Shown in pieces: positions 13,889 through 18,393 of a stretch of DNA of 64,000 nt. The translations under genes were made by a program, and so were the position numbers. Source of the stretch: a virus. Lineage: Duplodnaviria; Caudoviricetes. The DNA is taken from the IMG/VR virus record IMGVR_UViG_3300032295_004079, positions 32,001 to 96,000 of that record, one strand, 5' to 3'. The first letter of the stretch is position 1. Each line of letters opens with the position of its first letter. The notes below the pieces were generated by a model that made no database searches, had not been told where the DNA came from, and saw only the letters and a list, made by a program, of their open reading frames with translations.

Positions 13889-14392
13889 ATGATTTACTCT
13901 CCGACATTTCCAAAACCGTACATTCAAGAAAAGCTTTCCAAGCTTCGCAAACTAAAATACAACCAATTTAGATGGTGGAGAATGTACGACAATCCTGTTT
14001 TACCTTTGCCAAATAAGGCACCATTGATTGATAAAATCTTGAATGGTGATTTTGATTACCCACACTATAAACTCCAGGCTGAACTAGTAGAACACGAGCT
14101 AAACGAATTAGCTCAAAAGTGTGGGGGCAACAATGAAAAATTTGGAGAAAAAAGTGCGCTATTACGTGCTAAAAGAAAAAGATTGCTTGATGACTTTGAA
14201 AAAGAAGAAAATGATAAGCTAGATAGAATATTTAAAGAGTTTATTAAAAACTTTGCTTTAACCAAAGAACAAATTGAGGAAGAAATGCTAAGATTTGTTG
14301 GTAATTTAGGAGAATTTTATTATTATATGGGAGTTAGATACCAAAAAGTACAAAACCCAAACAGACGCGGACGTAAAAAGAAAAATATATGA
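13889..14392 (+). CDS. Hypothetical protein
   Basis: 167-aa ORF behind a promoter; AAGTTATG start context. Confidence 0.7.
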   Translation: MIYSPTFPKPYIQEKLSKLRKLKYNQFRWWRMYDNPVLPLPNKAPLIDKILNGDFDYPHYKLQAELVEHELNELAQKCGGNNEKFGEKSALLRAKRKRLLDDFEKEENDKLDRIFKEFIKNFALTKEQIEEEMLRFVGNLGEFYYYMGVRYQKVQNPNRRGRKKKNI

Positions 14393-15177
14393 TCAAAGTT
14401 TCACACGAAGTACCTAGATGTTTATTAAAAGCATCCCTTGAATTTAATGATTACCAGTATTGTCTACCCCATTTGCTAGATCAGGATACAGCTTATAGAA
14501 AGCACTTCTATGATTTTAAAAAATCAGGTGGGTATATTATAATGGACAATTCGTTACATGAACTAGGAGAGGCATATGACCACGAACGTTTAATGTTCTG
14601 GGTAAATGAGCTTGAACCTGATGAATTTATTGTACCTGATGCTTGGATGGATATTGATACTACTCTTAAAAATGCTGAAGAGTGGATTAAACTTAAATAC
14701 CCTTCAAACACTACACCAGTAGCAGTAGTACAAAGTAGAAGTTTTAAAGATGCAGAAGAATGTTATCTTACGTTAAAAAAACTAGGATATAAAAAAATCG
14801 CATTCTCGTATGGAGCGGATTGGTACATGGATAAATTCCACGGTATTCACGTAGATAAAGCAAAAATGCTAGGCCGAATATCAGCTGTAAAGCAAATGTT
14901 CCATAATGGTACTATCCAGAAAAATGATAGAGTACACCTCCTAGGATGTTCTTTACCACAAGAATTTGGATGGTACGAAAATTGTTCGTACATTGAGTCA
15001 ATCGATACTTCAAATCCAATTATGGCTGCTTTAGAAGGTATTAGGTATGATGAGTTTGGTTTGGTAACAAAACCAAAGGCAAACATGAACGATTATTTTA
15101 ACATTGATGTTAAAAATGTAAATTTAAAATTAGTATTATACAACGTAGAAACATTTAAAAAAATTAACGAGTTATGA
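14389..15177 (+). CDS. TGT/DpdA-like transglycosylase-fold protein
   Basis: Motif order IMDNS, IVPD, VAVVQ, IAFSYG, VHLLG, SIDTS mirrors TGT-family barrels; lies near queC. Confidence 0.6.
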   Translation: MIKVSHEVPRCLLKASLEFNDYQYCLPHLLDQDTAYRKHFYDFKKSGGYIIMDNSLHELGEAYDHERLMFWVNELEPDEFIVPDAWMDIDTTLKNAEEWIKLKYPSNTTPVAVVQSRSFKDAEECYLTLKKLGYKKIAFSYGADWYMDKFHGIHVDKAKMLGRISAVKQMFHNGTIQKNDRVHLLGCSLPQEFGWYENCSYIESIDTSNPIMAALEGIRYDEFGLVTKPKANMNDYFNIDVKNVNLKLVLYNVETFKKINEL

Positions 15178-16486: not shown

Positions 16487-16557
16487 TGTCCTATGGTGTA
16501 ACGGTAGCACAAGTGGTTTTGGTCCACTTAGACGAGGTTCGAATCCTTGTAGGATAA
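16487..16557 (+). tRNA. tRNA-Gln(TTG)
   Basis: Cloverleaf; anticodon arm AGTGG-TT-TTG-GT-CCACT; T-loop GTTCGAATC. Confidence 0.9.
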
Positions 16558-16562
16558 CATAC

Positions 16563-16636
16563 GGGCCTTTAGCTCATTCGGTTAGAGCAGAACACTCATA
16601 ATGTTAAGGTGGCAGGTTCGATTCCTGCAAGGCCCA
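16563..16636 (+). tRNA. tRNA with CAT anticodon (probably Ile2/lysidine type, otherwise Met)
   Basis: GGGCCTT/AAGGCCC acceptor stem; loop CT-CAT-AA; lacks the initiator GGG/CCC anticodon stem. Confidence 0.85.
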
Positions 16637-16665
16637 CAAAAAATAAATTTATAAACTAAAAAAAT

Positions 16666-16890
16666 ATGGAAATAGTATATTTTACCTTAGGTGCCGCTAC
16701 AGTTTTATTAGTAATTGGAGTTGCAATTATGATTAGGATAGGTATTCTAGTAAGAACATTACAAGAAGATCTAAGAGATCATGAAAGAGGAACTCATGAT
16801 GTGGCAGTTGATTTACATCGTAGAATTGATAATGAATTAAGAGATTTACAATCTCAATTAGATTCAAGATTGAGTAAACTTGAAGATTAA
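16666..16890 (+). CDS. Small membrane protein with coiled coil
   Basis: N-terminal TM, heptad-rich tail. Confidence 0.65.
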   Translation: MEIVYFTLGAATVLLVIGVAIMIRIGILVRTLQEDLRDHERGTHDVAVDLHRRIDNELRDLQSQLDSRLSKLED

Positions 16891-16912
16891 AATAGTTCTT
16901 TGATATGTATAT

Positions 16913-17067
16913 TGTAGAGTGTTGAAATTGGCAGACATGCCCACCTGTCTCGTGGGCGGGGGTAACGAAATAAAGTAAGGATATTGGGGTAGACCACCGG
17001 CTTGCAAGCGCTATTTGTCCTTTACCTAATTGCCCCGTGGATGGTTCGAATCCTCCCTCTACAGCCA
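16913..17067 (+). ncRNA. tRNA-like RNA (GTC/Asp anticodon) with ~80-nt structured variable region
   Basis: Acceptor TGTAGAG/CTCTACA + G + CCA; class-II-like D loop; anticodon stem GCCCAC/GTGGGC with loop CT-GTC-TC; T loop GGTTCGAATCC; 155 nt in total. Confidence 0.75.
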
Positions 17068-17071
17068 TTAT

Positions 17072-17145
17072 TCCTCCTTAGCTCAGCTGGTTAGAGCACA
17101 TGACTGTTAATCATGGGGTCCTTGGTTCGAGCCCAAGAGGAGGAG
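17072..17145 (+). tRNA. tRNA-Asn(GTT)
   Basis: TCCTCCT/AGGAGGA acceptor; CATGA-CT-GTT-AA-TCATG. Confidence 0.92.
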
Positions 17146-17150
17146 CACCA

Positions 17151-17222
17151 GCTCCTAAAGCATTGCTGGCGATGCGCATGACTTGTAATCATGATAACTT
17201 GGTTCGATTCCGAGTGGGAGCT
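17151..17222 (+). tRNA. tRNA-Thr(TGT)
   Basis: GCTCCTA/TGGGAGC acceptor; CATGA-CT-TGT-AA-TCATG; GGTTCGATTCC. Confidence 0.88.
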
Positions 17223-17228
17223 CAACAG

Positions 17229-17427
17229 TACCTCGATACTTCTCATAAGAACAGTTCTGAGGTCTTATTGTGATATAAGTGAATAGCCCAAGGCATAAGC
17301 TAGAATCACACCCCTAACCACTATTCAAATGACGATTTGATTATGTTAGGGTTTTAACAACACCCTATGACGAAGGAACTCAATTGAGAACTAGAAGTAA
17401 GGGCACTATGCACATAGGGTGTTTTTT
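17229..17427 (+). ncRNA. Candidate structured ncRNA (four stem-loops, possible long-range pairing)
   Basis: Stems ACCTC/GAGGT, TGTGAT/ATCACA, CCCTAAC/GTTAGGG, AACACCCTATG/CATAGGGTGTT; no credible ORF. Confidence 0.45.
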
Positions 17428-17433
17428 ATATTT

Positions 17434-17505
17434 GCTCGGTTCGTCTAGGGGTTAGGACGTATCCCTTTCACGGATAAAACACGGGTTCGATTCCCGTATC
17501 GAGTA
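17434..17505 (+). tRNA. tRNA-Glu(TTC)
   Basis: GCTCGGT/ATCGAGT acceptor; TATCC-CT-TTC-AC-GGATA. Confidence 0.9.
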
Positions 17506-17507
17506 CA

Positions 17508-17618
17508 AGATTGTAACGATTCGAAAGAATGACGGAACGGACGCTATGAATGAAATGGTAATCTTTGAAACTGTAGAAAGGAGTATAAGAGAAACAAACC
17601 GTACAGACGTTACAATCT
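17508..17618 (+). ncRNA. Candidate ~110-nt ncRNA closed by an 11-bp stem
   Basis: AGATTGTAACG/CGTTACAATCT perfect pairing; internal ATTC-GAAA-GAAT GNRA hairpin. Confidence 0.45.
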
Positions 17619-17655
17619 CCCTCTTTAAAGGAGTATAGAAAGTTATTTGAAATAT

Positions 17656-18032
17656 GGGGTTGAAAGGTATAGATTGGCAATGTAAATGAAGTAGATGATG
17701 CAAGCCGGGTTAGATGGAAATCCGTAAATACCTATCGAACAATAAGAGGCGAAGAGAAATCTTCATTCACCTTCGAAGATGCTTTGGCATTCGTAGGTGC
17801 TGATTACGCTGTAGCAGCCTAATCTTTCCCGCACACATCGTGGGGTGTTAAAAAGAATGTGTACCAAGGTGGAAAAGTGATTGAACCCGAAATCGAATCA
17901 CCCATTGGTTGTCAGGTTTACGATGGTGAAGAACAAACCGACTATTTTGTTTATTAAGAAAAATAAACTAAGCTTGTGAATGAGTCCTTTAGTTAGTTGA
18001 GCAAGACGGCGGTTCGATTCCGCCCAACTCCA
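17656..18032 (+). ncRNA. ssrA: tmRNA
   Basis: 5' GGGGTTG pairs with 3' CAACTCC-A (G3:U70); T arm GGCGGTTCGATTCCGCC; tag ORF 17748-17822 GEEKSSFTFEDALAFVGADYAVAA*. Confidence 0.92.
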
Positions 18033-18050
18033 CTTTTATTATTAAAAATT

Positions 18051-18227
18051 ATGGCACTATTTAAAGATTTAAAAGAATTACAAGAAGAATTGCAATACTG
18101 GAAAGAATACGAGCCTGTAAACAATATGGGAAAATGGTATGTAAGTGTCAGAATTGATAAAATAAAAAGAAAAATTAAAGCAGTTGAAGAAGAGTTAAAG
18201 AAAAGAAAAAATAGATTGGCTACTTAA
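18051..18227 (+). CDS. Hypothetical protein
   Basis: Started at the ATG after the tmRNA; the ORF-track start overlaps the tmRNA. Confidence 0.55.
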   Translation: MALFKDLKELQEELQYWKEYEPVNNMGKWYVSVRIDKIKRKIKAVEEELKKRKNRLAT

Positions 18228-18246
18228 ATCTCATTTCGTACCTTTA
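18216..18246 (+). promoter_or_regulatory. Promoter TTGG-N19-TAccTTTA upstream of tRNA-Leu
   Basis: TTGG 18216-19, TACCTTTA 18239-46. Confidence 0.65.
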
Positions 18247-18259
18247 TATTATATTAAAT

Positions 18260-18343
18260 GCCGGGATGGTGGAATAGGTAGACACGCAAGACTTAAAATC
18301 TTGTTCGCCAACGCGAGTGCGGGTTCGATTCCCGCTCCTGGTA
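18260..18343 (+). tRNA. tRNA-Leu(TAA)
   Basis: Class II; CAAGA-CT-TAA-AA-TCTTG; long variable arm; GGTTCGATTCC. Confidence 0.92.
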
Positions 18344-18393
18344 CTATTAATAAACATATTTATATTTATAACAAACAAAAACAAACAAACAAA

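Follow-up and report, generated by a model that had tools for sequence, protein, structure and literature searches.

How should one read an RNA that has the outline of a tRNA, the GUC anticodon of tRNA-Asp and a side arm of 79 nt, and that is encoded within a phage tRNA cluster? The DNA examined here, a stretch of 64,000 nt that we call the window, is part of a 113-kb phage contig in IMG/VR with an estimated completeness of 69%, and it contains just such an element. The original prediction, made from the letters of the window, was that the element is a maintained RNA rather than a decayed tRNA, that it is not a standard tRNA-Asp and that it is likely to be a mimic, which may have no part in decoding.

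A tRNA-shaped RNA in a phage RNA island

The element, here named X, is a tRNA-shaped RNA of 152-155 nt on the plus strand. Direct reading of the fold gives a full cloverleaf, with acceptor, D, anticodon and T arms plus a variable arm, and bears out the G73, the Leu-type D arm, the 6-bp anticodon stem, the CUGUCUC loop and the bulged T stem of the original description. The features are as follows:

16487-18344, plus strand: RNA island; ARAGORN and Rfam agree on its tRNAs and tmRNA
16913-17067, plus strand: X, tRNA-shaped RNA with its side arm
16913-16919, plus strand: acceptor stem, 5' strand UGUAGAG; seven pairs, six with compensatory changes
16922-16938, plus strand: D arm of tRNA-Leu type, 3-bp stem and 11-nt loop AAAUUGGCAGA
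16939-16957, plus strand: anticodon arm, 6-bp stem GCCCAC/GUGGGC including the 26:44 pair; the stem covaries
16945-16951, plus strand: anticodon loop CUGUCUC, 7 nt, with G34, U35, C36, U37 and C38
16958-17036, plus strand: whole variable-arm domain, 79 nt, supported by covariation
16958-16968, plus strand: 5' side of the arm base, GGGG (pairing with CCCC, 17033-17036), bulge GUAA, then CGA (pairing with UUG, 17030-17032)
16969-16974, plus strand: asymmetric internal loop, 5' strand AAUAAA, opposite CUAA at 17026-17029
16975-16983, plus strand: middle helix, 5' strand GUAAGGAUA, pairing with UGUCCUUUAC (17016-17025), one bulged U
16986-16998, plus strand: hairpin GGGG-UAGA-CC-A-CC with a bulged A; family motif GGGUWGACCAC
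17000-17009, plus strand: perfect 10-nt palindrome GCUUGCAAGC at the arm tip
17016-17036, plus strand: return strands of the arm (3' strand of the middle helix, CUAA, UUG, CCCC)
17039-17056, plus strand: T arm GGA(U)GG-UUCGAAU-CCUCC, 5 bp, with a bulged U after the third pair
17057-17067, plus strand: acceptor 3' strand CUCUACA (17057-17063), G73 (17064) and CCA (17065-17067)

The acceptor/T branch is of the 7/5 type, two unpaired nucleotides (GU) lie between the variable arm and the T stem, and the D stem of the window copy contains a U10.U25 mismatch. X is not called by ARAGORN, and none of the 4227 families of Rfam 15, the general tRNA family RF00005 included, matches anywhere in 16850-17120 even at E<=10. 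The same search returned no ribozyme or intron family for X at that threshold, and neither YrlA nor any other mimic family, which the original prediction had named as a check; a match to an already described family was an outcome that the prediction had itself named as fatal, and Rfam 15 holds none. When folded as a single sequence, X is no more stable than its shuffles (z = 0.34). The lone sequence thus proves nothing, and the case for a fold beyond chance has to be a comparative one.

The island also encodes tRNA-Gln, tRNA-Met, tRNA-Asn, tRNA-Thr, tRNA-Glu, tRNA-Leu and the tmRNA, which X adjoins, and X is, as first noticed, the sole island RNA followed by a full CCA. A cluster of 7-deazaguanine genes surrounds the island. 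Judged by one of these, QueC (65% amino-acid identity), the phage is related to the cultured Flavobacterium phage vB_FspM_immuto, in which the covariance model described below finds no copy of X. The cluster is not a trait of the family, because QueC lies within the fetched flanks of only seven of 85 phage loci.

Conservation and covariation among phage copies

The first homologues came from loci fetched via the neighbouring QueC gene, which yielded three close relatives (L003, L004 and L006). Two pattern scans of IMG/VR then enlarged the phage set to 86 loci including the window (at least 85 homologues), comprising 60 distinct sequences of 102-162 nt. The exact 29-nt pattern at the 3' end of X has zero matches in IMG/VR, and a blastn search of 50,697 cultured-phage records with X and a typical family member gave no true match.

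RNAalifold finds compensatory changes in 27 of 33 pairs of the phage alignment. When a 38-pair structure is laid over 59 distinct sequences, 96.4% of the cells are paired, against 45-54% when the partners are slid, and 29 of the 38 pairs have changed on both sides; none of 500 shuffles reaches any of the observed measures. All four cloverleaf arms covary, and the GG and GGUUCGAAUCC that form the G18G19/UUCGA elbow are invariant, as expected of the general tRNA fold. The RNA and its fold are therefore real and conserved. A decaying tRNA pseudogene, or a fold due to chance, would account for a single-sequence stability no better than that of shuffles and for the D-stem mismatch and bulged T stem of the window copy, but this reading is refuted by the hundreds of homologues with compensatory changes in every helix; the T-stem bulge, moreover, recurs in 20 of 59 sequences and is thus a lineage feature, not damage. 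On this point, that X is maintained and not decayed, the original prediction was right.

The closest relatives illustrate the pattern. L003 is a 99%-identical copy of X. In L004 the anticodon stem CCCAC/GUGGG of the window has become CCCUU/AAGGG, the arm base is likewise compensated, the D-stem mismatch is a Watson-Crick pair, the T-stem bulge is lacking and the arm, without its distal 35 nt, is a simple hairpin. Near-invariant among the phage copies are U1-A72 (U1 in 59 of 60 distinct sequences, the pair in 56 of 57 scored rows), G2-C71, G73 (58 of 60 distinct sequences), C74 (58 of 59 loci), U8, G9, the D loop, the loop YUGUCUC and the T loop. U33 is found in all of them and U37 in 58 of 59. 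A variant in two loci (L153 and L213) keeps the GACCAC-bearing arm described below and seemingly has no anticodon arm.

Two details that had been singled out at the ends of X turn out to be local. The encoded CCA, listed among the features first seen, is incidental: it is complete in only six of 59 distinct phage loci, and L003, L004 and L006 read G and then CACCA, which runs into tRNA-Thr. The CCA of the window arose along with the insertion of tRNA-Asn, a gene carried only by the window among the loci compared. Similarly, the ATATGTATA box directly upstream is common only to the nearest copy; the upstream positions conserved across the family are A -4, A -2 and U -1, in a leader that is A/U-rich. 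In many phage arrays X lies 4-9 nt from the flanking tRNAs, most often directly after tRNA-Ser, and in about half of the phage loci it is the only tRNA-like gene. This spacing, together with the A/U-rich leader ending in U -1 and the retention of C74 without CCA, suggests that X is processed as a tRNA is.

Homologues with covarying insert stems, on which the original prediction had staked its case, do exist, and covariation across the 59 distinct sequences establishes the insert as a conserved folded domain. Arm length differs among family members, between roughly 35 and 110 nt, but the parts follow one order. Directly after the 26:44 pair come 4 bp, a 5' bulge of 4-5 nt, 3 bp and the internal loop; beyond this lies a helix of 5-9 bp, to which the long forms add a hairpin, GG(G)G-UWGA-CC-A-C(C). 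The continuous GGGGUAA/UUGCCCC helix that was first drawn at the base is replaced, on the evidence of covariation, by GGGG/CCCC, a 4-nt 5' bulge and CGA/UUG. Among distinct phage sequences six of the seven pairs in these base helices have changed on both sides, as have all six pairs of the middle helix. No other element of the arm is as well conserved, in phages and bacteria alike, as the internal loop; its consensus is RAUARR / YKAA, with two coupled variants, AUAAA with CUAA and AUAG with UGAA, and it may resemble the UAA/GAN loop motif.

In the hairpin the outer pair covaries (G-C in 28 sequences, U-A in 14), and neither the inner GG/CC nor GACCAC varies among the 51 long forms; the hairpin as a whole is missing in short forms and in some bacterial types. 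The GAC of the hairpin could in principle pair with the anticodon GUC. The hairpin is lacking in many members, and wherever it exists both triplets are invariant, so covariation cannot test such a pairing. A perfect palindrome of at least 8 nt follows 3-4 nt past GACCAC in 24 of 40 distinct distal segments, compared with 9.6% of shuffles. The tip is nearly always a perfect palindrome, and its sequence differs: over 15 kinds occur, 6-12 nt in length. Even the four central bases of the tip are self-complementary, which makes it reasonable to imagine two molecules pairing there, and the tip may allow X to dimerise.

These data also bear on whether the 79-nt insert might be an intron or a mobile insertion, removal of which would leave an ordinary class I tRNA-Asp. 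Excision of the whole arm would indeed leave a short variable loop, and the distal 35 nt come and go between close relatives (the window and L004). Yet every member, down to the shortest, shows conservation and covariation in the arm base and internal loop, and the class II character of the D arm is the one associated with a long arm that is retained. Rfam offers no matching ribozyme or intron family, U37 would persist after removal of the arm, and we know of no bacterial splicing route for the variable-loop position. We consider an intron or insertion very improbable.

Bacterial homologues and their AsnC-like neighbour

X is not confined to phages but is also found in the chromosomes of many Bacteroidota. 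In a pattern scan, 185,579 species genomes yielded at least 120 bacterial loci, of which those listed are nearly all from Cytophagales, Pedobacter and other Sphingobacteriales, Saprospiraceae and Chitinophagaceae; some bacteria have tandem copies, with five in Persicobacter diffluens (NBRC 15940). Other culturable bearers of X are Algoriphagus alkaliphilus DSM 22703, Pedobacter zeae DSM 100774 and Spirosoma luteum DSM 19990. Independently of any loop pattern, a covariance model derived from the aligned phage copies was applied to 151 evenly drawn Bacteroidia genomes and detected X in 28, with scores of 83-137 bits against 40-59 bits for tRNA-Leu, the next-best class of match. The core is common to the phage and bacterial copies, and so in many lineages is the GACCAC hairpin, a distribution that fits exchange of the gene between hosts and phages.

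The bacterial copies have a characteristic neighbour. At 73 of 107 bacterial loci among the matches listed, a divergent gene for a 158-amino acid protein of the Lrp/AsnC family lies about 150 nt upstream. Among NCBIfam models it matches AsnC best, scoring 180 bits where the equivalog cut-off is 227, with every other named subfamily at 72 bits or less and Lrp at 48. A close orthologue of this regulator is encoded by all 28 of the X-bearing genomes but by only nine of the 123 that lack X, and gatB by all 28 as against 83 of 123, both being raw counts that ignore shared ancestry. No AsnC neighbour is seen at the phage copies of X.

In E. coli, asnC and asnA are transcribed divergently. Of the 28 X-bearing genomes, 26 encode a member of the AsnB family, so that X is not obviously required for asparagine. 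The asnA gene, found in six of the 151 sampled genomes, none of them X-bearing, is too rare to be informative. An inverse relation between X and asparagine synthetases thus goes unsupported by this crude test. Among the nine loci opened in which the regulator occurs in genomes without X, no asparagine synthetase lies beside it, and the neighbours are heterogeneous. AsnRS, GlnRS and GatB occur together in five named X-bearing bacteria, in which GatCAB is accordingly not needed merely to supply translation. A gene for an AMP-binding enzyme that lies downstream of X at 27 loci encodes an ordinary FadD-type ligase, which is probably unrelated.

Possible charging, decoding and use of X

Which nucleotides of X are kept, and which are free to vary? 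In E. coli the identity set of AspRS comprises G73, G34, U35, C36 and C38, and G10 (in G10-U25) is a further determinant. Decoding has other needs, namely U33 and a purine at position 37; a pyrimidine there is, as far as we know, nearly unheard of in decoding tRNAs. The 20 bacterial homologues found by covariance model, rather than by loop pattern, keep G34-U35-C36, C38, G73 and U1-A72, whilst in the same set all four bases occur at position 33 and U, G or C at position 37. The AspRS set is near-invariant in the family as a whole, save for two bacterial copies in which UUC replaces GUC, and G10 is not conserved (position 10 is A in 26, U in 19, G in 13 and C in one). The family does have the 7-nt loop in its phage members but not, across its range, the U33 and purine 37 of a decoding elongator. 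A canonical tRNA-Asp(GUC) is, furthermore, encoded alongside X in eight phage loci. With GUC, C38 and G73 kept, 33 and 37 free and a normal tRNA-Asp coexisting, the pattern suggests recognition of the kind given to tRNA-Asp, by AspRS or a similar reader, and no routine decoding. X has a class II body like that of leucine tRNA, furnished with the nucleotides that bacterial AspRS reads (G73, G34-U35-C36, C38 and G2-C71). The predicted absence of decoding agrees with the variation at 33 and 37 and with the separate tRNA-Asp genes; what X does instead we infer.

It could be argued that X decodes all the same, as an odd but working tRNA-Asp isoacceptor for GAC and GAU that evades host tRNA-cutting defences through its U37 and its arm. 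The phage copies retain the 7-nt loop, U33 and GUC, their spacing within phage arrays is tRNA-like and a Tad2-like anti-defence gene lies just downstream of X in 12 phage loci. The pyrimidine at 37 speaks against this, as do the canonical tRNA-Asp genes already mentioned and the conserved motifs of the arm, for which a mere escape variant would have no need. In the bacteria, one or a few copies of X sit beside a normal tRNA set, vary at position 33 and adjoin an amino-acid regulator. Precedents have been reported, in phage tRNAs whose altered anticodon loops evade anticodon nucleases (PMC10264068) and in engineered long-arm tRNAs that still translate with hairpins inserted (PMC7590224). On balance we think a decoding role rather unlikely.

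Somewhat less unlikely, if still a minority possibility, is that X is never charged and instead binds a protein, whether AspRS, a nuclease, an enzyme of tRNA modification or another, as a decoy, sponge or regulator, with the arm as a docking module for protein or RNA and possibly as a dimer. The invariant arm motifs (GGGUWGACCAC and the AUAAA/CUAA loop) and the palindromic tips suggest binding of a partner or dimerisation, and the variant that keeps the GACCAC arm apparently without an anticodon arm also speaks for this reading. But the helix most conserved in sequence is the acceptor end (U1-A72, G2-C71, G73, C74), a sign that the 3' end is used, and the short forms and some bacterial lineages do without the distal arm motifs, which therefore cannot be the core function. 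A decoy for anticodon nucleases, one of the roles originally proposed, is possible for the phage copies and leaves the chromosomal copies beside the AsnC-like regulator unexplained. The anticodon loop also contains UGU, the recognition triplet of bacterial TGT, and the window copy lies inside a 7-deazaguanine cluster. Since U33 is not conserved in bacteria, TGT is not a common reader of X, and insertion of queuine at UGU is unlikely to be a common purpose; with QueC so rarely nearby, we dropped TGT and queuosine as a general explanation.

Of the functions first proposed, an aminoacyl donor fits best. We put at a little under evens the reading that X is a carrier charged with aspartate that acts off the ribosome. 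RNase P and the enzymes of 3' processing would excise X, CCA would be added post-transcriptionally and AspRS would load it with aspartate, after which X would serve as an amino-acid carrier and not as a decoder. The phage record encodes neither a class IIb synthetase nor a SerRS-type core, its sole Asn_synthase match being QueC, so any charging of phage-encoded X would fall to host enzymes. The phage would have captured the gene from a host and would express it along with its tRNAs, and might thereby rewire amino-acid supply or tie up host enzymes during infection.

A more specific version of the carrier, tentative and in our view distinctly less probable than the carrier in general, involves GatCAB and asparagine. 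The AsnC-like regulator, the presence of gatB in all 28 X-bearing genomes and the U1-A72 pair together suggest the link to asparagine. U1-A72 is a positive determinant for bacterial GatCAB that lets it amidate Asp-tRNA (PMC1635274), and GatCAB could thus convert Asp-X to Asn-X, providing either an AsnC-controlled route to asparagine or a donor of asparaginyl and aspartyl groups. The huge arm, U37 and the lack of a fixed base at position 33 would hold the charged RNA away from decoding, and aptamer-tagged long-arm tRNAs are reported to stay active (PMC7590224). An extra nucleotide in the D loop (U20A/U20B) blocks GatCAB, however, and the tail of GatB docks near the D and variable loops (PMC1635274, PMC2811023); the long, 11-nt Leu-type D loop of X and its arm at the very docking site of the tail both count against amidation. 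The unconserved G10, the AsnB-family genes in nearly all X-bearing genomes and the two UUC copies weigh against the carrier and asparagine view too, as do the phage copies, which lack the AsnC neighbour and all have U33. Taken together as one scheme, in which a non-ribosomal tRNA is charged by AspRS, amidated by GatCAB by way of U1-A72 and used under AsnC control as a donor or platform for asparagine or aspartate, with an arm that keeps it off the ribosome and dimerises it, and in which phages have captured the gene, these steps make up a minority possibility.

How does X compare with systems already described? With bacterial tRNA-Asp(GUC) it has in common GUC, C38, G73, G2-C71, the 7/5 geometry and the GGUUCGAAUCC T loop. 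It differs in having U1-A72 rather than G1-C72, U37 rather than a purine, a 3-bp D stem of Leu type with an 11-nt loop where class I tRNA-Asp has a 4-bp stem, no conserved G10 and an arm of 35-110 nt in place of a variable loop of 4-5 nt, so the claim that X is no standard tRNA-Asp is borne out. The D arm (GAAAUUGGNAGAC), the GU before the T stem and the overall body are those of class II tRNA-Leu, whilst G73 instead of A73, the GUC loop, U1-A72 and an arm three to eight times longer, with motifs of its own, set X apart from it. The likeness to tRNA-Asn of the route that combines a non-discriminating AspRS with GatCAB (PMC1635274, PMC2811023) lies in U1-A72, G73, G34-U35, the co-occurrence with gatB and the AsnC-like regulator; tRNA-Asn has GUU where X has GUC, and lacks the long D loop (an anti-determinant for GatCAB) and the giant arm; the product made on X would have to be excluded from translation. 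By sequence, then, the ends and elbow of X are its most tRNA-like parts and its identity marks are most like those of tRNA-Asn and tRNA-Asp.

The allo-tRNAs and long-arm tRNAs of Mukai and colleagues resemble X (PMC5389517, PMC7590224) in being irregular and class II-like, in coming from metagenomes and phages and in tolerating hairpins in the arm. Allo-tRNAs have 8/4 or 9/3 branches and serine identity; X has a 7/5 branch with a bulged T-stem U in some members, aspartate marks and a far larger arm. YrlA, other bacterial Y RNAs and tmRNA likewise join a tRNA-like module to an extra domain, but YrlA ends in a Ro-binding stem, where X ends in an acceptor stem, and tmRNA has no anticodon arm, where X is a complete cloverleaf. 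Among phage RNAs, the stable "species 1 and 2" of T4 are encoded in a tRNA cluster, are about 140 nt long and have no known function; they resemble X in these respects and are possible relatives.

A full-text search of the literature found no description of the X family, nor does Rfam 15 contain one, and we know of no earlier account of this variant among tRNA-like RNAs. Missing from both Rfam and the tRNA finders, the family goes unannotated everywhere. Non-decoding RNAs of tRNA shape are few (tmRNA, YrlA and the tRNA-like ends of viral RNAs) and each has opened a field. The X family is abundant, in many phage contigs and roughly a fifth of the sampled Bacteroidia genomes, and elaborate in structure, and its conservation separates the nucleotides read by a synthetase from those read by the ribosome. 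The pairing with an AsnC-like regulator yields a definite hypothesis, open to test in strains that grow in culture, and an off-ribosome carrier, if that is what X is, would add a new branch to tRNA-dependent metabolism and make X a phage auxiliary gene of a new kind. Counts of phage tRNAs and analyses of codon supply, for their part, overlook X or would miscall it as tRNA-Asp.

A tRNA-Asn gene beside X and the origin of its CCA

X, the tRNA-shaped RNA with a giant folded variable arm and aspartate-type marks (window 16913-17067, + strand), is followed in the window by a tRNA gene that is unique to it among the close relatives compared:

window 17072-17146, tRNA-Asn(GUU)

This gene is a recent insertion, because three relatives (L003, L004 and L006, 96-99% identical) run from X via CACCA straight to tRNA-Thr, with no tRNA-Asn between them. 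The CCA found 3' of X in the window was made by the same insertion.

Tandem copies of X in bacteria

L274:6437-7247 (Persicobacter diffluens), five tandem X copies, spacing 172 nt

Among the matches listed, several other bacteria possess two or three adjacent copies of X, and adjacent copies frequently pair a long-arm form with a short-arm form. In the short-arm X of Cyclobacteriaceae (L251, L256, L263, L271 and L282), the hairpin loop at the tip of the arm is 8-9 nt long and contains the palindrome GAGCUC, a layout similar to that of kissing-loop dimerisation sites.

Other unusual RNAs on a tRNA frame in phage loci

L069:6025-6918, four paralogous RNAs, 97-128 nt
L153:6528-6666 and L213:10564-10702, tRNA-framed RNA, 139 nt
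L165:484-590 and L222:3257-3363 (also in L187 and L230), unusual tRNA-like RNA, ~107 nt

The four L069 RNAs, none of which was called by ARAGORN, are built on a common acceptor stem (AGUCAGG) together with a T arm and a D arm of the Leu type, and their middles are divergent and odd, lacking a clear anticodon arm; they may represent other cargo domains carried on a tRNA-Leu frame. The 139-nt RNA combines a D arm of the Leu type with an arm domain that contains CUGACCACC and CCUAAUC, and it apparently lacks an anticodon arm. In the ~107-nt RNA, the acceptor stem GUGGUCG/CGACCAC is followed by ACCA and the middle is irregular.

The RNA island and neighbouring genes

window 17656-18035, phage tmRNA (Rfam, 84 bits)
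L120:12019-12270, Tad2-like gene, same strand as X

Two ORF-free inter-tRNA spacers (window 17229-17427 and 17508-17618) gave no Rfam match at gathering score, and Pfam and NCBIfam searches with the 262-aa ORF at window 14389-15177 gave no match. The tag of the window tmRNA is long, at 24 residues, and similarly long tags are seen in related phage loci. Twelve phage loci, L120 among them, carry a gene resembling Tad2 (Thoeris anti-defence 2); it shares the strand of X and is located ~350 nt downstream of it.
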